Of a stretch of 64,000 nt of DNA, positions 8,349-60,946 are shown one piece after another. The notes beneath the pieces are model-generated. The model did not search any database, was not told where the DNA came from, and saw only the letters and a program-made list of their open reading frames with translations. Location: the sequence record OR352953.1; one strand, 5' to 3'. Within the stretch, counting starts at the first letter, position 1. The number at the start of each line of letters is the position of its first letter. The position numbers and the translations under genes are program-made. The DNA comes from Escherichia phage AV123.

Positions 8349-8549
8349 TTAATCCCCTTCATATTTAGGTAAAGGCATATATGCCACAATAGGAGGGTAA
8401 TCAAAGTGAAAATGATGGTTCACCACAATAATCTTACCAGACATACTTTTATGCACTTCACAATACCCTTTTTCACCATCTTCCATTACCACCACATACT
8501 CACCTAGTGGGATATCGTATGGATCTTCTACTTTTACCCATCCTGTCAT
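8349..8549 (-). CDS. hypothetical protein
   Basis: 66 aa ORF; ATG overlaps stop of upstream small ORF. Confidence 0.45.
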   Translation of the reverse strand: MTGWVKVEDPYDIPLGEYVVVMEDGEKGYCEVHKSMSGKIIVVNHHFHFDYPPIVAYMPLPKYEGD

Positions 8550-8698
8550 TTTGTAAACTCCTCATAGTAAGGTAAAGCCTTGATCAGTTGTTCTGAAGTG
8601 CCATTTTGCACCCACGTAACACCATTGTCAACAGAAACATACCCTTTTTTGTCAATAAATTTACGCAGACAACCAGTGAACTTATTTTTGTAGATCAT
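8546..8698 (-). CDS. small hypothetical protein (50 aa)
   Basis: hand-translated; stop/start overlap with neighbours on both sides. Confidence 0.4.
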   Translation of the reverse strand: MIYKNKFTGCLRKFIDKKGYVSVDNGVTWVQNGTSEQLIKALPYYEEFTK

Positions 8699-8862
8699 TT
8701 CTTCTTTCCTTTTTTGATTACAGCCCCATCACTTCCTTGCCAAACTTCCGCTCTAAATTCCATCTCAAACCACTCACCACCGCAAAAACGGCTGTGTTCA
8801 ACACGTCTATCTTCCTTCATTGCTTCTTTAGCTTCGATAGAAGTTAGTTCGATGTTTTGCAT
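8695..8862 (-). CDS. small hypothetical protein
   Basis: start reset to ATG 8860-8862 with AAAGGAG RBS; first gene of minus block. Confidence 0.45.
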   Translation of the reverse strand: MQNIELTSIEAKEAMKEDRRVEHSRFCGGEWFEMEFRAEVWQGSDGAVIKKGKKK

Positions 8863-8893
8863 TTGCTTTTCTCCTTTCATTTGGTATGCGCTA

Positions 8894-8921
8894 ATCTTAA
8901 CAAAATAAAAATGTATGTCAA
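8894..8921 (-). promoter_or_regulatory. sigma70-like promoter for the minus-strand block
   Basis: minus strand TTGACA-16-TAAGAT upstream of 8862 gene in the divergent region. Confidence 0.45.
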
Positions 8922-8980
8922 TACTTGATTTGAAATTAGTTTCTGGTACTCTGTGTGTATCGTAACAAAAGAGGTTAGAT

Positions 8981-9271
8981 ATGAACATCACACTAGCAAC
9001 TAAGAATATTACAGAAACTTTCGATGGTTTTGGCATTATTATTGCTGTTCATGGGCATAACGAAAAATGGTTAGCCTCTTTTGAAGAGGACAAAGAACGC
9101 AATGTACGTTTGAATGCACCAATCAAAGTTTTACACCAGGTAGGTGAGAATAAGAAACAATGGAGATCATACAAAGAGTGGAACATTACAAACGAATTAA
9201 TACACAAACTTGACAAAGTGCTAAACATGTTCGACAATGCACCAAGCAGTGCAAAACGTGTTTTACTATAA
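8981..9271 (+). CDS. hypothetical protein
   Basis: 96 aa; AGAGG RBS. Confidence 0.55.
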   Translation: MNITLATKNITETFDGFGIIIAVHGHNEKWLASFEEDKERNVRLNAPIKVLHQVGENKKQWRSYKEWNITNELIHKLDKVLNMFDNAPSSAKRVLL

Positions 9272-9282
9272 AGGAGAGTGAT

Positions 9283-9636
9283 ATGAAAATTGTACACGAT
9301 GAAATTCAATTTGAAGAGAGTGATCTTCTTGATCTGGATGTGACACTAAGTAAACTGATCTACAACGCACTTTCTGCATATCGTGCAAAAGTGATAGCCA
9401 CAAACAATGTTAAAATTCCTAGCGGGTTACTTCGTCGGATGTACCCACACGCTAAAGGTGACTATCTACCTTATATGGAAGAACGAGCAGCAGAACACTG
9501 GTTAGAAATTCTTGAAAAAATGGAGTCCTCTTTTAAGGATTCAACTCCACCTGAAGAAGTTAATGAAAAACAACGGCAAGAGCGTTTAGAAGGTCGTATT
9601 TTGTTTGCTAAGTATTTCCATAATTTGTGGAGCTAA
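9283..9636 (+). CDS. hypothetical protein
   Basis: 117 aa; AAGGAG RBS. Confidence 0.55.
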   Translation: MKIVHDEIQFEESDLLDLDVTLSKLIYNALSAYRAKVIATNNVKIPSGLLRRMYPHAKGDYLPYMEERAAEHWLEILEKMESSFKDSTPPEEVNEKQRQERLEGRILFAKYFHNLWS

Positions 9637-9716
9637 ACATATCTGGTAAAATCACTTATATGTTCTTAGTATACTTGTGTAAAGAAGTTATCGGTCTAAT
9701 TAATTAAGGGGAAGAT

Positions 9717-9968
9717 ATGATTCAGTTTCAAAAAGGTCAAAAGATGACAGTTCACGATGCAGAGGAAATGGAGTTTGCACTTAAACTTCTCGAAAATGCT
9801 GGGTTTGTGTGGATCAACGGTGGAGAGAAGCCTACAGCTTGGCTTCCGCATGAGAAAATAGCCAACCACACCTTCCCTGATAGTATCAATTGGCATTCTG
9901 ATGGTAAGATTTGCCGTGGAAGTTACCCAACAGGTGTTGAGTGGACTATTAAATTAGGAGGGCTTTAA
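9717..9968 (+). CDS. hypothetical protein
   Basis: 83 aa; AAGGGG RBS. Confidence 0.5.
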   Translation: MIQFQKGQKMTVHDAEEMEFALKLLENAGFVWINGGEKPTAWLPHEKIANHTFPDSINWHSDGKICRGSYPTGVEWTIKLGGL

Positions 9969-9969
9969 T

Positions 9970-10308
9970 ATGTTTAGTAAAGAAATGAGAGAAGTAATTG
10001 CCACTTTGGTAGTTGATCATGGTGTTGAAGTTGAGCGTCACGTTTGGAACGATGAACCTCCTTTCTTCGATTTGGCATCACGAGCTAAAAGTCATATGCA
10101 CCTGCTGGAAGACGGTAATGAGTTTGTTCTCCGTATGCGTTATGATCGAGAGTTTCGAATTCCGCTTGACACTGAACCAGATGGTGTAGTAATGTGGTTG
10201 GCAGAACATTTCGCATACGATGCACTACATGGAAGAAGTTTTGGTAATGAGCGTTGGGATGCCATTTGTCGTAAGCATAATATTGAACCAGAGTACGGAG
10301 TTTTATAA
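9970..10308 (+). CDS. hypothetical protein
   Basis: 112 aa. Confidence 0.5.
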   Translation: MFSKEMREVIATLVVDHGVEVERHVWNDEPPFFDLASRAKSHMHLLEDGNEFVLRMRYDREFRIPLDTEPDGVVMWLAEHFAYDALHGRSFGNERWDAICRKHNIEPEYGVL

Positions 10309-11217: not shown

Positions 11218-12345
11218 ATGAAATACACGATTTATGGTGATATTGTAAGTGTAAATAAAGATATGGGCGTGGAATCTAACTATCTTCCACCTGGATTCTA
11301 TACTGTTAGTCGTGATCCCCTTGGCAATTACTTTTTAAGCCGTGGTAATCTAACAGGTGTACCGGATGTTCTGTATGGTGAAACAGAAAAACGAGCAAAT
11401 CACGTTATTCGTACATTCCATCGCCGGAGTGCACAAGGTAAAAATACAGGTTTGCTCCTGACAGGCACTAAGGGCAGTGGTAAAACTATGTTAGCCAAAC
11501 TCATTAGTCGTGACCTTGTAGAAGAAGGTATTCCAACTATTATGGTTACTCAAGCCTACAGCGATGCTAATTTCATTGAACTTATTAGCAAGATCACCGA
11601 CAAAGCAGTGATTATTTTTGACGAGTTTGATAAAGTATATGAGAAGAAACAAGATCAAGAAGCACTTCTCACTTTGTTAGATGGTACTGGCAGTGGTAAT
11701 AAACTGTTTATTCTAACTAAAAACAGTGGCTTTATCTCTGAATTCTTTCTAAATCGTCCTAGTCGTGTGTTTTATAATTTTAATTATGATAAAATCTCAC
11801 TAGAAACTATGATTGACTATTTAGATAAAAACCTGGATAACAAAGCACACTTTGATAATTTCCAAAGGCTTTGGGATGTAAGTTTAGAGTTGTCCTTTGA
11901 TGTGATCCAAGGTATAGTAGAAGAACTTAATTTCTACCCTGATTTATCCTTTAAAGAATGCATCTCTATGATGGGCGTTTCTTTGGGTGGTGGTAATAAG
12001 TGGGATATCAGCAGCGTTGTTATTAATGGGAAACTTCAGAAAGTTAGCTGGGTATCTAGTTGGCATAACTTCACACCTGCAATCTTTTTAGGTGGCTCGT
12101 GCACACTAGACGTGTACTTGTCATCTCCAAGTGATGCAGACTCTAAAGAAGCCCTTGCTAATAGCTCTTACGTGGTTTTTGATGATGAAGGAGATGCTCG
12201 AATTCCATTGAATGCGACAAAAATGAAAGCAGATCTTATTACAGGCGGTAAAATCGTTGTGTTTAGTGATGATCCAGAAGATTCTTTCCGTATTGTTCTG
12301 GAACCAACTATCACCAATGGTGCAACTTTGGCAAGCGTGTTTTAA
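11218..12345 (+). CDS. AAA-type ATPase domain protein
   Basis: Walker A GTKGSGKT, Walker B IIFDEFD; 375 aa. Confidence 0.65.
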   Translation: MKYTIYGDIVSVNKDMGVESNYLPPGFYTVSRDPLGNYFLSRGNLTGVPDVLYGETEKRANHVIRTFHRRSAQGKNTGLLLTGTKGSGKTMLAKLISRDLVEEGIPTIMVTQAYSDANFIELISKITDKAVIIFDEFDKVYEKKQDQEALLTLLDGTGSGNKLFILTKNSGFISEFFLNRPSRVFYNFNYDKISLETMIDYLDKNLDNKAHFDNFQRLWDVSLELSFDVIQGIVEELNFYPDLSFKECISMMGVSLGGGNKWDISSVVINGKLQKVSWVSSWHNFTPAIFLGGSCTLDVYLSSPSDADSKEALANSSYVVFDDEGDARIPLNATKMKADLITGGKIVVFSDDPEDSFRIVLEPTITNGATLASVF

Positions 12346-13961: not shown

Positions 13962-14175
13962 TATTTTGAAAATTTTTATTTTTATAAAAAGGGGTGTGGG
14001 TTTCATGTACGGAAATTCACCCTCTGAATAATATATTCAGAGTAAATATTATTTTGTACTCTGTTAATAAATTATTTAATTTGTTTGTTGGATTATGATA
14101 TCTGGTTTTTAAAAGGCATACTATCTCTTAACTACTATTTATAACAGAACAGTAAAATCATTTTTATAAAAAGGA

Positions 14176-14382
14176 CAAAATTATTTAAAGTTTTTACAGA
14201 TTTTTGGATACAAATTTTGAAAATGAAAAGTTCAAGTTTGGTCAAAATTATTTAAAGTTTTTGTATGTATTTCTATCCAGATTTTGAAAATGAAAACTTC
14301 AATTTTTTAAAAATTCCCCAGTTTATTTAAAGTTTTTTTGCCTTTTTCCGTAGAAAAATCAAAAATGAAAAGTTCAATTTCG
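14176..14382. repeat. three tandem ~65 bp AT-rich direct repeats
   Basis: units at 14176, 14243, 14320 sharing ATTTAAAGTTTTT...ATTTTGAAAATGAAAAGTTCAA. Confidence 0.7.
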
Positions 14383-14400
14383 TGTTTTTATAGGTGTGTT

Positions 14401-14513
14401 AATGAGAATCATTTTCGTTTGTAAATGAGAATCATTATCATTTAACTATGTAAGTGATAATCATTCTCACTAAGAGAATGAGAATCATTAGCAAATGAGA
14501 ATTTTTCTCATTT
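14401..14513. promoter_or_regulatory. cluster of five Fur-box-like palindromes (ATGAGAAT-C-ATTCTCAT family)
   Basis: copies at 14401, 14424, 14454, 14474, 14493; one symmetric substitution from E. coli Fur core TGATAATCATTATCA. Confidence 0.5.
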
Positions 14514-18328: not shown

Positions 18329-18556
18329 ATGGCTATCGTTATTGTTCGCGTATCCGGTACGGTTGGAAGCTCCCAGGTAGTAGCAGTTATCACAGAGAAG
18401 AAAGGGGATGATCTTCACTCCTCCTTGAATAGCTGGGCGGTCGCTAACTTTGGGCAATGGTCGAGCGTTGAGTACATCGAATCCTACCAGGTGCCAACGA
18501 TTAGCCTAACCGATCTAAATGTTGATCGCTTGTTGTGCCTGGATCAATTAAACTAA
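18329..18556 (+). CDS. hypothetical early protein
   Basis: 75 aa. Confidence 0.55.
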   Translation: MAIVIVRVSGTVGSSQVVAVITEKKGDDLHSSLNSWAVANFGQWSSVEYIESYQVPTISLTDLNVDRLLCLDQLN

Positions 18557-18564
18557 AAATAATA

Positions 18565-18620
18565 TTGACAAGATAACTAAAATCAGTAAAATGTAATGCA
18601 TAGGGCGGCAATAGTGCCGC
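18565..18620 (+). promoter_or_regulatory. promoter plus leader stem-loop cassette 5
   Basis: TTGACA-16-TAAAAT then GCGGCAATAGTGCCGC. Confidence 0.55.
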
Positions 18621-18643
18621 TCCTAGTGAGAGAGATTATCAAG

Positions 18644-22103: not shown

Positions 22104-22373
22104 ATGAAAATATCTTTGGACGTTGCAATCAAGGCCATTGAATCCGGTTACACCCTGGTAAAAGATGATAAGGCTAAAACCGTGCACCACGTTAACAAGG
22201 AAACAGGCGAAAGCATGATCACATATAAAACCGCCTATTTTCTCCAATCAGTAGCAGATCCGCGCGTACAACGCCAGGTTACGGCGGCTATTGCTAAAAA
22301 ATTATGTGCTTTACAGGGTACAAGTTTTAACGAGATCGCCCCGTGTTTTGACTGGTCGAGCTTGAAAAAATAG
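22104..22373 (+). CDS. hypothetical early protein
   Basis: 89 aa. Confidence 0.55.
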   Translation: MKISLDVAIKAIESGYTLVKDDKAKTVHHVNKETGESMITYKTAYFLQSVADPRVQRQVTAAIAKKLCALQGTSFNEIAPCFDWSSLKK

Positions 22374-22374
22374 T

Positions 22375-22430
22375 TTGACAACAATTATAAATCGGGTAGA
22401 ATGTATTTCGTAGGGCGGCAATAGTGCCGC
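22375..22430 (+). promoter_or_regulatory. promoter plus leader stem-loop cassette 11
   Basis: TTGACA-17-TAGAAT then GGCGGCAATAGTGCCGC. Confidence 0.6.
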
Positions 22431-22453
22431 TCACAACTAAAAGAGAAATCAGC

Positions 22454-25116: not shown

Positions 25117-25321
25117 ACCTAAATAAAGATGATAGCTTTTACCTATCAAAAACGTTCACCGAAAAAAGTGAATAGATCGCGGTATCGAGCTAATCAAGGA
25201 GCAGATGAACAACCATACCATGAAGATCATAAGGCGCTTACAACGTGTTTTAGACCGCTTATTTTTAATTTCTTCATGTAATTACCTGGCAAAAACAGCC
25301 TTTTTCTTGTCTTTCCTCTTA

Positions 25322-25392
25322 AATGATAATCATTCTTATTTATAGCTGATTATTTATGCAATAAATTGCATAATGCAATAATGAGAATCATT
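25322..25392. promoter_or_regulatory. two Fur-box-like palindromes
   Basis: AATGATAATCATTCTTAT at 25322 and AATGAGAATCATT at 25380. Confidence 0.45.
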
Positions 25393-25948: not shown

Positions 25949-26241
25949 TAATGTTTAGAACATTGGCTATAATATAAGCTATCCAATAATAAACATGGTG
26001 AATAATGACACTGATGATCATAATGCGCCACCCTCCAGGGGGCGCTATGTGAACACAAAGAAATCTTTCTTGTCAAGAAAAATATCACCATTATTGCGCA
26101 AAATTATTTATATCTGAATAGATGATTTTTCATACTATTGCCCCCTTGATTATTACCATTTGTTGAGCCTACTTTCTTAAAAGCGCAATAAAATAGAATT
26201 ATATTGATTTTTAGTCGGTTTTATAGTACAGAAAGTATGCA

Positions 26242-26456
26242 AATGATAATCATTATCAGCTATCTTCCACGGGTGGCACTATTTCACACCAGATCATTTC
26301 ATTTGGCAAGGTGTATATAGATGTTTAGACTTGCCAAGCCATTGATTTCCTTAGAATTTATCTGTTTTGTTGTGAGTAGTACCTTTCTTGCTTAGAAAAT
26401 AATCAAAAGTCTTATAAGTCATTGAATGATAATACAAATGATAATTATTCTCATTG
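26242..26456. promoter_or_regulatory. Fur-box-like sites
   Basis: AATGATAATCATTATC at 26242 (15/15 to Fur core) and GAATGATAAT..ATGATAATTATTCTCATTG at 26424. Confidence 0.5.
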
Positions 26457-26814
26457 ATATTTGAGGGGGACGGTCGGCAGAAATCGGGGGGTGCTGAAAA
26501 TCGCGTTAAGCACCTCTCGCAAGCGAGCAGTATTTTGCGGCAAGTTATTGATATTATTGACTTTACGCTTATGAAAAGGGGGTGTGTCGAAATAAATCGG
26601 GTATACCGGAAAATTTTTGTGGCATAGATATTTATTTGTCTATATTATGTACAAAGGGGTGTGTTAAAAATAATAGGTATATATAGAATAATTGATAGGG
26701 AATATCTATACTAATTCCTCCATTAATGATATTCCTATGCTACTGCTCTTGTAATAGATGAAAAGACGCTGTATGATGTGTGGCATGAAACGTAAACTTA
26801 TAAAGGAGTCTGAT

Positions 26815-42838: not shown

Positions 42839-43359
42839 ACAACCTCCTCGTAGTTGTTATTGTGTTTTACTGTCTCAACATACAATAAAGATTCCATCTG
42901 TAATACATTACCAGAAATAATAAACCCATAAGCCATTTCAGATGTGTCTATATCATATGCCCCGTCTTCCGGTTTAGCAAAGTGTAAAACTATTTCATCC
43001 GGGTTTTCTTCATCCCATAGTTTAGAAATTTTCCGAACCAGAATGTTAGCTAAAATAGTTGACATTCGGGATAAAGCTGTATCCTCATATCTTTTAAAAC
43101 CTAGCCAATAGAGGTTAAGAATTTCTACTTCTTCTTGTGTTAAGTTTTTGTCTAAAGTAATCAGATCTGTAGAGCACGGCGTTTTTGTTGAACCTACTGT
43201 TACAAAACCTGGAGTGTTATGAAAAACAATCTTAACTTTATCACGTATAAAGTTTAAACCTTGTGCCTCAACTATATATTGTATTGTAGGTACAATATCG
43301 TTTGTTACATCAATAAAACTATCTTTAATGACGCTTATATTATTTCTGGACAAGACCAT
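42835..43359 (-). CDS. hypothetical protein
   Basis: 174 aa; AGAGGAGA RBS. Confidence 0.55.
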   Translation of the reverse strand: MVLSRNNISVIKDSFIDVTNDIVPTIQYIVEAQGLNFIRDKVKIVFHNTPGFVTVGSTKTPCSTDLITLDKNLTQEEVEILNLYWLGFKRYEDTALSRMSTILANILVRKISKLWDEENPDEIVLHFAKPEDGAYDIDTSEMAYGFIISGNVLQMESLLYVETVKHNNNYEEVV

Positions 43360-43918
43360 TCTCCTCTAAAATAGGCTTAATAAACTCGAAAATTTGTTTT
43401 TTACTTTTACCTCTAATATTAAAACAAGGAACATTAAACTTTTTAGCCAACATCCAAGCTGTTCTTGTACCACCTAAAGGATCTCCATTTTTATCTGTAT
43501 TTGCACAAGCTAAAAGAAAACAAGATGGTTTTGGATTCTCAAGATCTCTGCCAAGAACTTGGTGGATATTCCTTTGATGTAATTTTTTAGCACCTTGAGA
43601 TAATCTGTCCCAAGCCGGATGCAATTCTTTTGCATATTGTAAGGTTAAAGCATAGTTTACACTATCTGGTCTGTCAAGAACAATAACCTCTCCCTCTATT
43701 TCATTACCTTTAAACGAGAGCCAAGGGATGTATATTTCTTTCTTTGTATTGTTCCCACTATCATATACCCCGCATTCAAATGCGGAATCTGCACCTTCTG
43801 CTTTACCAGATCGCAAAATGAACCATGTAGATAACCATTTTGCAACAGATACCATAGTATCCCATTCTTCGTCTGTAATATCTCTGCTACCAACACCTGT
43901 GTAGAATAAATCGCTCAT
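43340..43918 (-). CDS. DprA/Smf-like Rossmann-fold (SLOG-type) protein
   Basis: GVGSRD...SGKAEGADSAFECG resembles DprA SGgA.G.D motif; start reset to ATG 43916-43918 (AAGGAG RBS). Confidence 0.4.
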   Translation of the reverse strand: MSDLFYTGVGSRDITDEEWDTMVSVAKWLSTWFILRSGKAEGADSAFECGVYDSGNNTKKEIYIPWLSFKGNEIEGEVIVLDRPDSVNYALTLQYAKELHPAWDRLSQGAKKLHQRNIHQVLGRDLENPKPSCFLLACANTDKNGDPLGGTRTAWMLAKKFNVPCFNIRGKSKKQIFEFIKPILEENGLVQK

Positions 43919-43928
43919 GGTTTTCTCC

Positions 43929-46125: not shown

Positions 46126-46788
46126 TTATTTAATATTCAATTTTGCACAAAGACGTTGTACCGCTTTGGCATCGAACAAACTCCCACGAATAGTTCTCTT
46201 TCCTGATTCATTCAGATGCTTTGCAATCGTCATATATGGCGTTTTACAAGCTCTGTATGCAACTAAAGAATCTTTTAAAGAAAGCGCAAACTCTCTTGAG
46301 CGTTTTGCTTCTTCCGTTTTCGTATAATCTGTTCTTTTGTATTTAGGGTTTGCTGCACCAAGAAGCGTTCCCTTCGCTTTTGCTACCTTAAGGCTCTTCT
46401 TAACACGATCAGATATTGCACGAGCCTCTTCTTCTGCCAGAACTGCTAAAATATTTATTATCATATTTTCAGCGGAGGGCATAGTTGCTATTCGTACATT
46501 AATCATCTCTAATAAGGTTGCAACAGAGGCTGTGTTACGTCCAAGACGGTCAACCTTAGCAACAACAAGTGTAGCACCTGTTTCTTTGCAAAGATTAACA
46601 GCTTTTACAAGCTCTCTACGTTGCTTCCAATCGCCTTTACCCGAATAAAACTCTGCAAAGCTACCTACAATAGTATAATTTTCTTGTGAATCCAGGAAGC
46701 GTTGAATATCTGCTTCCTGTGATTCTATACCATACTGGTTGCCTTGTTGTTTCTTCTTAGAAAGTCGATGATATAGTACAAACTTCAT
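46126..46788 (-). CDS. serine recombinase (resolvase/invertase family)
   Basis: N-terminal YHRLSKKKQ catalytic-Ser context, resolvase-like core; GGAGGG RBS; 220 aa. Confidence 0.7.
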   Translation of the reverse strand: MKFVLYHRLSKKKQQGNQYGIESQEADIQRFLDSQENYTIVGSFAEFYSGKGDWKQRRELVKAVNLCKETGATLVVAKVDRLGRNTASVATLLEMINVRIATMPSAENMIINILAVLAEEEARAISDRVKKSLKVAKAKGTLLGAANPKYKRTDYTKTEEAKRSREFALSLKDSLVAYRACKTPYMTIAKHLNESGKRTIRGSLFDAKAVQRLCAKLNIK

Positions 46789-46845
46789 AATACCCTCCTG
46801 TTCTGTTACAGGAAGTATGCACTACCTTAATGTTAAAGTCAACAG

Positions 46846-59974: not shown

Positions 59975-60946
59975 TCACCATTTTGTATGGTTAGTCAAAA
60001 GTTGACGATGTTGAATCCAACCACAGAAGTTTCCACTCCACAAACGATGTTTACGATCCATATGTGTAATACCTTCTTCCCAAGAAGTAGGGAACGGAGG
60101 AATATTAATACCACCTTTCTGTTGTTTTAATCCTGACAAATCCATTTCTTTCATTGGTGTTGCCTGGTGTTCAAACGGAGATGCATGTACCTTCTGTCCA
60201 GACAGCAAACGAGAATAGATATCCAATGCTTTATCTTTAGTATCATTCAATTTACGATAACTTACCTGAGCGCAACAAGAAGCTGAGATAGCTTTTGCTT
60301 CATCTTCTGTCAACATTTTCTCGTTGGAGAAGGTTTCACCCAAGAAATAACGGATCATACCAGTTTCTGGATCTCGATCACGATTAACGTAAGGTGTATG
60401 CCATTCCCCTGGGAAAAGAAGATATGGTTCAGAAGATTCATACAATTTTTTAATTTCTTTAGCAAGAGCCTCAATAGTAGGATCTGCATCAGCATCTACG
60501 CGCAACCACAAGAAGTTTTCTAGCTCTGTAGTGGTTACTACAGTCTTCATACGCTGGAATGGTTCTAGTAGGCGGTTTGCAACCTGTTTATGATAACCAG
60601 CAAGGGCAAACTCTTCTGCAAAACGTGCAGCACTTAGCGCAGCCAAGTCCCACCATTCTTTTGCAGTGTAACCTGCATCAATCAGGGCATCGTGATCTGT
60701 GCCTTTATCTTGCATACCTGGTTGGTTAGCACCAAAACGATAAGGACGTGCTGGAGATTGCCGTACCATTTCAATTAGAGTTTTAACAGGGATAGCTCGA
60801 CTTGATGCGGCATTACGAGAAAACAAACGATGCGTCATCAATTCAGAGTGAATGATTCGAGGATATTCAAGTTCAAAGGTAACAATATCCTTACCTTCAG
60901 ATGTTTGAGAGTGTGCAATAATTTTTGCTGAAATAGAATTTGTCAT
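59975..60946 (-). CDS. thyX: flavin-dependent thymidylate synthase
   Basis: ThyX motif HRLFSRNAASSRA (RHR...S.R); 323 aa. Confidence 0.8.
   Translation of the reverse strand: MTNSISAKIIAHSQTSEGKDIVTFELEYPRIIHSELMTHRLFSRNAASSRAIPVKTLIEMVRQSPARPYRFGANQPGMQDKGTDHDALIDAGYTAKEWWDLAALSAARFAEEFALAGYHKQVANRLLEPFQRMKTVVTTTELENFLWLRVDADADPTIEALAKEIKKLYESSEPYLLFPGEWHTPYVNRDRDPETGMIRYFLGETFSNEKMLTEDEAKAISASCCAQVSYRKLNDTKDKALDIYSRLLSGQKVHASPFEHQATPMKEMDLSGLKQQKGGINIPPFPTSWEEGITHMDRKHRLWSGNFCGWIQHRQLLTNHTKW

Follow-up and report, generated by a model that had tools for sequence, protein, structure and literature searches.

A small serine recombinase of virulent phi92-like phages with a predicted half-integrase architecture and a possible resolvase-like role

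The virulent phi92-like phages of Escherichia have, to judge from its conservation, retained a gene for a small serine recombinase for a long time. Our tentative explanation, which combines the different lines of evidence, is that the product is a recombinase of half-integrase type and that it would act on phage DNA in replication in the manner of a resolvase. Three statements on this enzyme are new. The proposed half-integrase architecture falls outside all named subfamilies. The protein would be neither an integrase nor a tail-fibre invertase of the Hin/Gin type. The genome structure of the genus appears to be stable apart from one ancient dimorphic inversion.

Results

The recombinase gene and its family

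The gene was studied in a stretch of 64,000 nucleotides from Escherichia phage AV123 (OR352953.1), the whole of which is referred to as the window. The window is 97–99% identical to the phi92-like Escherichia phages (Justusliebigvirus, Stephanstirmvirinae), which are virulent myoviruses of ~148 kb, and maps to ~121.3–148.6 kb plus 0–37.4 kb of phi92. The tail module of phi92 (70.7–93 kb) falls outside this span, in agreement with a preliminary description of the DNA according to which the window has no tail-fibre genes.

The open reading frame occupies 46126..46788 on the minus strand and codes for 220 residues, from the ATG at 46788 to the stop codon included at 46126 (ORF list). A ribosome binding site, AGGAGG, can be read at 46794..46799 (minus strand), 5 nt 5' of the ATG, and is annotated in phi92. 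The protein matches Pfam PF00239 (Resolvase) over residues 4–141 with E = 8.4e-22 and 78.3 bits, the cutoff being 23.3 bits. Among the PHROG profiles it matches PHROG 125 'DNA invertase' (1.5e-31) and, over profile positions 88–307 of 651 only, PHROG 95 'integrase' (1e-25); the PHROG category of the family is DNA metabolism. By sequence, the open reading frame is a real gene, far beyond chance, and the encoded protein is a member of the serine recombinase superfamily. The small serine recombinase of 220 residues that had been postulated at this place is thus borne out by the open reading frame, the Resolvase match and PHROG 125.

The protein is the orthologue of phi92 gp053, which the reference record calls 'DNA invertase; putative recombinase, resolvase family', and it is 99–100% identical to the products of genes annotated as 'DNA invertase / serine recombinase' in Justusliebigvirus phages. 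Serine recombinase, resolvase and site-specific recombinase are further labels in the records of relatives. The observation is already public at the annotation level, for phi92 and many of its relatives; the family assignment, although correct, repeats existing annotation and concerns a familiar enzyme superfamily. In the accessible literature we found annotation-level mentions of the gp053-type recombinase and one speculation (PMC10282059), and no experiment.

The catalytic domain

The catalytic domain together with the alpha-E helix (residues 4–141) is encoded at 46366..46779 on the minus strand, as delimited by Pfam, alignment, AlphaFold2 and Foldseek. Profile comparison with structures of small serine recombinases (the Sin, Tn3, gamma-delta and Gin set) gave E-values of 1e-16 to 1e-15. 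The catalytic serine is present: in the profile-to-PDB alignment S10, with its codon TCT at 46759-46761 (minus strand) inside the catalytic domain, is part of the sequence Y6-x-R8-x-S10 (YHRLS) and pairs with the nucleophile serine of Sin. The motif D80-R81-x-x-R84 (VDRLGRN), also within 46366..46779, pairs with D67-R68-x-x-R71 (LDRLGRD) of gamma-delta resolvase. Among 28 homologues with identities down to 31%, the residues D80, R81, R84, E121 and R128 are invariant, and Y6, R8 and S10 are retained in at least 90%. In the alignment of homologues the catalytic serine is followed by an insertion, S-x3-Q-x9-Q, which we take to be typical of large serine recombinases.

The AlphaFold2 model computed from the alignment has a mean pLDDT of 87.6. 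It consists of a beta-alpha catalytic core (residues 1–100), a long alpha-E helix (108–138, with pLDDT values of ~86–92) and the C-terminal part described below. Foldseek aligned the catalytic part with the catalytic domain of Sin at a TM score of 0.70–0.75 (normalised to the target). The conservation of Y6/R8/S10, D80/R81/R84, E121 and R128, the Pfam, PHROG and PDB matches and the confident structure model together indicate that the gp053-type recombinase is apparently an active, catalytically competent and stand-alone enzyme.

The C-terminal module

In the model, a poorly defined linker of low confidence (residues ~139–161) is followed by four short helices (residues 162–216, encoded at 46141..46305 on the minus strand), which probably form the C-terminal DNA-binding module, as assigned from profile, Foldseek and the Pfam matches of divergent members. 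A Pfam scan of the whole recombinase at E <= 1 returned Resolvase alone and no HTH_7, and the C-terminal 79 residues had no Pfam match at E <= 10. The sequence profile, though, aligned residues 24–219 to residues 39–245 of the SPbeta integrase SprA/YokA, and the Foldseek alignments that span the whole protein (235–283 columns) were those with the large serine integrases of Bxb1, PhiC31 and SPbeta (SprA). In addition, three divergent members of the family (P0076, P0077 and P0079) exceed the cutoff of Pfam PF07508, with a match to positions ~5–50 of 102 that falls in their last ~45 residues. On the basis of the SprA alignment, the full-length Foldseek alignments and the PF07508 matches, the DNA-binding module is predicted to correspond to the first half of the 'recombinase domain' found in large serine integrases, and not an HTH_7 of the Hin/Gin/Tn3 type.

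The zinc-ribbon and coiled-coil parts of the integrases are missing from the 220 residues according to Pfam and the structure model. The protein ends after the four short helices, so that the absence of a large C-terminal integrase domain, remarked on earlier, is confirmed. Judged by its NCBIfam scores, the recombinase is well under the cutoff of every named subfamily: 35.6 bits were obtained for CcrB (cutoff 900), 32.6 for the Mpi invertase (272), 29.8 for YneB (175) and 25.6 for XisF (375). An N-terminal MerR domain of the IS607 type is absent, as the catalytic domain begins at residue 4. Nor were other IS607-type features seen; there is no transposase partner, and the gene is single-copy and syntenic instead of multi-copy and mobile. 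PADLOC gave no match for the recombinase and thus no link to a defence system.

Distribution and neighbourhood of the gene

All 55 Justusliebigvirus records, which include some RefSeq/GenBank duplicates, carry the recombinase with at least 99% amino-acid identity. Elsewhere the identity is 78% in Klebsiella phage FKP3, ~57% in Phapecoctavirus, 50% in Citrobacter phage Tr1, 33–50% in Vibrio and Shewanella phages and 27% in Cellulophaga phages, and metagenomic homologues are found on contigs of 135–157 kb. The Escherichia matches of a phage-wide tblastn search comprised 106 records, all of them Justusliebigvirus or Phapecoctavirus-like with ~57% identity. The related Vequintavirus (rV5-like) phages had no match in this search and appear to do without the recombinase, the function of which would therefore not be essential to the phi92-like type of virus. 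Within the genus, 5–8 synonymous codon changes stand against 1–2 non-synonymous ones. A sensitive blastn search with the gene region gave no match in E. coli (5,426 complete genomes, both chromosomes and plasmids). According to these comparisons the recombinase gene is present in single copy and has been inherited vertically in the Stephanstirmvirinae and in some marine relatives.

The gene is located inside a long co-oriented block of early and DNA-metabolism genes. Its neighbours are phage early genes, coding for a methyltransferase, an HslV-like peptidase, a phosphatase and a DprA-like protein, and the phage being virulent, the term lytic-type block in the preliminary description is appropriate. 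There is no plasmid replicon or transposase among the neighbours, no repressor or partition gene was seen annotated among them in the phi92 record, and the published description of these phages reports no lysogeny genes (PMC12210895). Gene order is loosely preserved, as PhoH ... recombinase ... DprA-like, between phages as far apart as phi92 and Shewanella phage 1/4. Since the immediate neighbours are not conserved between genera, nothing suggests an accessory or directionality factor.

Downstream of the recombinase, the gap to the next gene is 9 bp, while the upstream spacer measures 57 bp. In four distant phages the tightly packed operon widens in this way, to 57–88 bp, just 5' of the recombinase gene. 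The spacer in the window contains a sigma-70-type promoter-like element, TTGACT-17-CATACT (46814..46842, minus strand), found by a consensus scan in which promoter-like matches across the region were not above chance overall. Spacers of 67–88 bp in Phapecoctavirus nieznany, Shewanella phage 1/4 and Vibrio phage vB_CoeS_P1 contain TTGACA-17-TAnnnT; the motif TTGAC(A/T)-17-(T/C)AnnnT is thus found in all four phages. We infer that the element may serve as a dedicated host-type (early) promoter of the recombinase.

Collinearity of related genomes

A segment that is being flipped should show both orientations among independent assemblies. We screened ~96% of the genome in ~55 records by megablast, using as queries the window (1–64 kb) and the regions 37.4–62.4, 68–105 and 105–121.4 kb of phi92. 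Each record proved to be collinear, with matches in two places only where the arbitrary ends of a record fall inside the query. The one exception was an inverted block of 0.95 kb (window 8696–~9650). The 25 kb around the recombinase are collinear in all relatives, and the collinearity was seen again when phage alia was compared locally over its whole genome. The whole tail-fibre/tailspike module is collinear in all relatives, and a tail-fibre switch was rejected for this reason. Tailspike diversity comes from cassette replacement, the endosialidase gene being unique to phi92. No inverted repeats flank the recombinase, and hence there is no adjacent invertible segment with inverted sites of ~26 bp.

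The preliminary description had considered that the enzyme might drive inversion of a switch region elsewhere in the genome. This is disfavoured by the collinearity of ~96% of the genome, including the tail-fibre/tailspike module, and further by the missing Hin/Gin-type DNA-binding domain and by the linkage of the sole inversion to diverged haplotypes. The search for inversion isomers, run on assemblies, did reveal one 0.95-kb orientation polymorphism, but no signature of active switching.

The 0.95-kb orientation dimorphism

The 0.95-kb block is situated at a divergent strand-switch point and bears a divergent early promoter region. Its orientation is that of the window in 23 records and the opposite in 32 records, including phi92; it is inverted in alia. 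The breakpoint at window 8695/8696 is identical to the base in all records. The ends of the block are free of inverted repeats, the best match being 10 bp with E > 2. The junctions are non-conservative, each orientation having its own junction sequence and RBS. A 50-aa gene has its start codon at one breakpoint. The other interrupts a coding sequence: the 183-aa fusion gp217 of phi92 corresponds to ORFs of 59 aa and 112 aa, which lie on opposite strands of the window.

There is a perfect association between orientation and deeply diverged haplotypes. Sequence identity between the orientation classes is ~80% in the promoter-bearing sub-block and ~90% in the right flank, as compared with 97–99.5% within a class. 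No class structure is seen in the left flank or in orf96, the latter being 100% identical between PD211 and alia. A single metagenome sample contained both orientations, each in a distinct strain. If the whole block flipped repeatedly, its sequence would become homogeneous; the observed divergence thus indicates an old rearrangement that has persisted as two stable alleles, the middle part of which undergoes ordinary homologous exchange. Junction anatomy and haplotype linkage led us to reject the inversion as a product of active switching. The recombinase may conceivably have brought about the initial rearrangement, but there is no indication of this.

Search for target sites

In the whole window, the inverted and direct repeats were terminator hairpins, promoter/stem-loop families and Fur-type boxes only, and no repeat of either kind flanks the recombinase. 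No multi-subsite res site was found near the gene, its 57-bp spacer consisting of one promoter-like element and the RBS. When the upstream spacers of four genera were compared, the sigma-70-type promoter alone was common to them, with no shared dyad. The leader contains a dyad, TTCCTGT-N6-ACAGGAG, which overlaps the RBS; its left arm presumably resembles a gix half-site. In a complete genome 6 matches with <=5 mismatches were counted, against 2–3 in shuffles, and there is no second copy proper. We regard the leader dyad as a coincidence, since it has no partner, is mutated in alia, is absent in Phapecoctavirus and overlaps the RBS.

Genomes with short direct terminal repeats have been described (PMC12210895, PMC12695924), and for BME3 a direct terminal repeat of 342 bp has been determined with PhageTerm (PMC12210895). 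This repeat maps to window 26166–26507; the records of phi92, PHB05, PD114, W22, VEcB and UAB_1 begin exactly at window 26166. The repeat holds Fur-type 9-1-9 palindromes. It has no dyad with a 2-bp centre, the kind on which serine recombinases act, and no 12-2-12 dyad at >=9/12, in a search that is weak for degenerate sites of ~26 bp, and a lox-like site in the terminal repeat was rejected for want of such a 12-2-12 dyad. In the window as a whole, 12-2-12 dyads were not in excess (4, as compared with 1–7 in shuffles).

De novo search for degenerate sites of ~26 bp in 148 kb of AT-rich DNA has low power, and its negative outcome is weak evidence. Crossover sites with inverted repeats, which the preliminary description had led one to look for, did not emerge in convincing form from the repeat, spacer, leader-dyad or terminal-repeat searches. 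That no candidate site was found in the spacer, the flanks, the terminal repeat or the leader dyad is a point against a resolvase role.

Discussion

Proposed role of the recombinase

Serine recombinases bind as dimers to two short dyad sites, which synapse in a tetramer. As a member of this family, the phage enzyme would bind two short dyad sites as dimers and bring them together in a tetramer. All four strands would be cut with 2-bp staggers through phosphoserine links to Ser10, and the subunits would rotate by 180 degrees before religation. The recombinase would be made early, from its own host-type promoter, and would carry out a resolvase-like reaction (deletion/monomerisation or cyclisation) on phage DNA during replication of the terminally repeated genome. 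That it is expressed early and acts in resolvase-like fashion on replicating phage DNA, being neither a Gin/Hin-type invertase nor an integrase, is a proposal to which we give somewhat less than an even chance.

Resolvase-type recombination of replicating phage DNA is the role that we consider most likely, and this preference comes from plasmid homologues, viral neighbourhoods and the PHROG category of DNA metabolism. Homologues of the same size and ~35% identity over the full length occur in rep/par modules of small plasmids; examples beside rep and parA-type genes are found on Phaeobacter pP18_i (7.3 kb) and on a 19-kb Spirosoma plasmid. A site-specific recombinase in a plasmid rep/par module normally resolves multimers. 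At 65 distinct viral loci with relatives of 30–40% identity, a YqaJ-like exonuclease is a neighbour in 22, and PDDEXK/Hjc-like nucleases and an AAA_25 primase-helicase are other recurrent neighbours. Both the plasmid and the viral argument are guilt by association with ~35% identical proteins of putative function. On the other side, we know of no requirement for a resolvase in genomes with short direct terminal repeats. The earlier idea that the enzyme resolves replication dimers or concatemers is thus plausible from the occurrence of the same architecture in plasmid rep/par modules and viral replication neighbourhoods; a res-like site to go with it was not found.

More specifically, the early recombinase might act at a short site to close the incoming linear genome into a circle, or to monomerise or convert replication intermediates, as a programmed step of the lytic cycle. 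In this definite form the proposal is rather unlikely. If it were true, programmed recombination would explain why the recombinase is at least 99% identical in every phi92-like phage, and a function like that of P1 Cre/lox or 2-micron FLP would be exerted by a truncated serine recombinase of the integrase type.

Alternative explanations

According to its GenBank label of DNA invertase, the enzyme would flip a phage segment in cis or in trans. The block at window 8696–9650 would be an example, where flipping would swap the pairing of promoter and early operon, as in the Mpi system of Bacteroides. The orientation polymorphism is real, with 23 against 32 records and the shared break at 8695/8696, both forms of the block occur in one metagenome sample, orf96 inside it is up to 100% identical between the orientation classes, and the NCBIfam model of the Mpi 'master DNA invertase' aligns over nearly the full length, although with 32.6 bits instead of 272. 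However, the block ends have no inverted repeats (10 bp at best, E > 2) and the junctions are non-conservative, as seen in the 183-aa gp217 of phi92 and the 59-aa and 112-aa ORFs of the window. Orientation is locked to haplotypes of ~80%/~90% identity, a difference that recurrent flipping would erase. No further inversion exists in ~96% of the genome among ~55 records, and the enzyme is without an HTH_7 of the Hin/Gin type. We therefore regard invertase function as improbable. Failure to find a site in the phage genome would be accounted for if the enzyme had its target in non-phage DNA (the host chromosome, prophages or satellites, or plasmids), in the service of host takeover or counter-defence, where a resident element might, for instance, be excised or scrambled; the early host-type promoter and the isolated position of the gene, which has no co-conserved partner, would fit as well. 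Nothing speaks positively for such a target, PADLOC gives no link to defence, and with hosts as diverse as Escherichia, Klebsiella, Vibrio, Shewanella and Cellulophaga it would have to be conserved or to co-evolve, so that this explanation is unlikely.

An integrase, or a maintenance resolvase of a hidden temperate, pseudolysogenic or plasmid-like carrier state, might be suspected from the PHROG 95 'integrase' match (1e-25), from the integrase-derived C-terminal module and from the plasmid homologues beside rep/par genes. The protein corresponds to only the first ~220 of the ~450–650 residues of an integrase, however, and is missing the att-selecting zinc-ribbon and coiled-coil. Neither the chromosomes nor the plasmids of the 5,426 complete E. 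coli genomes gave a blastn match. A carrier state is contradicted by the lack of a repressor or partition gene among the neighbours seen and of lysogeny genes in the published description (PMC12210895). Identity as an integrase was rejected on the missing domains and the lack of a prophage or episome form in E. coli genomes; the whole reading is already largely refuted and has a very small probability. It is also doubtful, with only a slender chance of being right, that the protein is mainly a sequence-specific DNA-binding regulator, for instance of replication or early transcription, or else that the gene is a passenger, selfish or relic, and that recombination has no relevance to the phage. 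No pair of sites was found, Vequintavirus relatives appear to do without the gene, and resolvases commonly autoregulate by binding to their own promoters. The conservation of all catalytic residues over identities of 31–100% would, though, be unexpected in a protein that only binds DNA or in a relic that is decaying. In 55 records the gene is syntenic, single-copy and at least 99% conserved, and it has neither the N-terminal MerR domain of the IS607 type nor a transposase partner.

Significance

Because of the recombinase, automated lifestyle and safety screens flag therapeutic phages of the phi92-like and phAPEC8-like types as carrying a 'recombinase/integrase'. That it would not be an integrase is indicated by the missing att-selecting domains, by the lack of a copy in 5,426 E. 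coli genomes and by the stable genomes of the relatives. The recombinase is a well-conserved enzyme of a much-studied phage group. If its site were found, it would become clear for what purpose a virulent phage employs site-specific recombination. At the same time, a widespread class of half-integrase-like small serine recombinases, which also occurs on plasmids, would be characterised. Such compact enzymes could serve as tools for genome engineering.

Comparison with known recombination systems

With Sin (pI9789/Tn552), Tn3, gamma-delta and Gin/Hin the phage recombinase has the catalytic domain and the alpha-E helix in common, and its size is similar (~185–220 aa). It differs from them in its C-terminus, which is not an HTH_7, and in having no adjacent res, gix or hix site, transposase or invertible segment. 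The N-terminal ~220 residues of Bxb1, PhiC31, SPbeta SprA, CcrB and XisF are co-linear with the whole of the phage recombinase, and this extends into the first helices of the 'recombinase domain'. In contrast to the large serine integrases, the phage enzyme does not have the second half of the 'recombinase domain', the zinc-ribbon and the coiled-coil (220 aa as compared with >400 aa), nor was an attP/attB or prophage form of it found in E. coli genomes.

Mpi of Bacteroides, also a small serine recombinase, works in trans on promoter-bearing segments at a distance. Its NCBIfam model aligns over residues 6–196, yet the score of 32.6 bits against 272 indicates that the phage recombinase is not a member, and unlike in the Mpi system no segments flanked by inverted repeats were found. 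Cre of phage P1 cyclises the incoming terminally redundant genome and resolves dimers. The likeness to P1 Cre/lox is a functional analogy only, in that we propose a similar role in a phage whose genome has terminal repeats of 342 bp. Cre belongs to the tyrosine recombinases and comes from a temperate plasmid-prophage, and no lox-like site was found in the terminal repeat here.

For the plasmid-borne 'recombinase family proteins' (Phaeobacter pP18_i, Spirosoma, Synechococcus, Hymenobacter) and their counterparts on many, small viral contigs, which are ~215–235 aa long, we found no tested function in the accessible literature. They have the same two-part architecture as the phage recombinase and, with ~35% identity over the full length, likely belong to the same subfamily. 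Their genes have rep/par modules or exonuclease/primase genes as neighbours, whereas the recombinase described here is encoded by a virulent myovirus of 148 kb.

A two-orientation block at the early strand switch

At the point where the early genes diverge onto opposite strands, the window carries a dimorphic inversion block of about 0.95 kb (8696–9650), flanked by the segments 8546–8698 and 9970–10308. Its orientation is as in the window in 23 Justusliebigvirus records and as in phage phi92 in 32, and the breakpoint at 8695/8696 is common to all records of both orientation classes. The block contains a 59-aa ORF, a divergent promoter region and the ORFs orf96 and orf117. A single gene of phi92, gp217 (183 aa), corresponds to a fusion of the 59-aa ORF with the 112-aa ORF. 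Terminal inverted repeats were looked for at the block ends and none were found.

The orientation is an ancient and stable dimorphism, since it is linked to haplotypes which share just 80–90% identity with each other. Between the two forms, the promoter sides change places with respect to the early operons they face. Both forms occur in a single metagenome sample (IMG/VR 3300045988), on the separate contigs L101 and L103. Across the 3.3 kb compared, L101 matches the window at 100% identity, and the window may derive from this contig.

Between orf117 and the 112-aa ORF of the window lies an 83-aa ORF (9717–9968) for which no PHROG match was obtained. It is a small strain-specific insertion, as it has no counterpart in the annotation of phage VEcB, where a 98-bp spacer takes its place, or in the alignment with phage alia.

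Repeated non-coding elements and Fur boxes

A repeated element of about 40–50 nt is present in seven copies between 15565 and 24382, with further coordinates at 18555–18622 and 22365–22432. It corresponds to families D1, D2, D4 and D6 of the window repeat search and has the form TATCACATAGG-GCGGGAAATGGTTTCCCGC, combining a conserved motif with a GC-rich hairpin downstream of it. The element is located upstream of small plus-strand genes, and two copies are preceded by a promoter of the form TTGACA-17-TAAAAT. It probably forms a stem-loop at the promoter-proximal 5′ end of early transcripts.

Repeat family D3 consists of three tandem AT-rich repeats of about 67–79 nt each (14160–14380). They are located within a large non-coding stretch, directly upstream of tandem Fur boxes, and could serve as an origin or in regulation.

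Boxes close to the E. coli Fur consensus were found at 14398–14492 (three in tandem), 25319–25342, 26005–26041, 26239–26257 and 26432–26468. Allowing up to three mismatches, the motif GATAATGATAATCATTATC gave five matches compared with 0.09 expected, a number reached in none of 100 shuffles. On the basis of these sites, we suggest iron/Fur-responsive control, or titration of Fur by the phage. Two of the boxes are contained in the terminal repeat described below.

Genome end, paralogues and neighbouring genes

Phage BME3 has a direct terminal repeat of 342 bp (PMC12210895), which maps onto the window at 26166–26507. The records of phi92, PHB05, PD114, W22, VEcB and UAB_1 all start exactly at position 26166. 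The genome's physical end falls within the window, the assembly of which therefore runs through the collapsed terminal repeat.

Extra places in similarity searches are due to a pair of AAA ATPase/FtsH-like paralogous segments (window 11609–11943 versus alia 60584–60918; phi92 117690–118101 versus alia 77050–77461). The paralogues are about 65% identical, in opposite orientation and about 16 kb apart, and do not represent a rearrangement.

Unverified GenBank records titled ‘Campylobacter phage’ (MG065639, MG065645, MG065656, MG065689 and also MG065650) are 96–98.5% identical to these E. coli phages in the regions screened, and probably represent coliphage contaminants or mislabelled entries.

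Among the neighbours of the 220-aa serine recombinase gene, only the DprA-like gene (phi92 gp047; 43340–43921, minus strand) is found again close to the recombinase of a distant relative. In this phage, Shewanella phage 1/4, its match S14_15 (phmmer E = 5e-26) is located two genes downstream of the recombinase.
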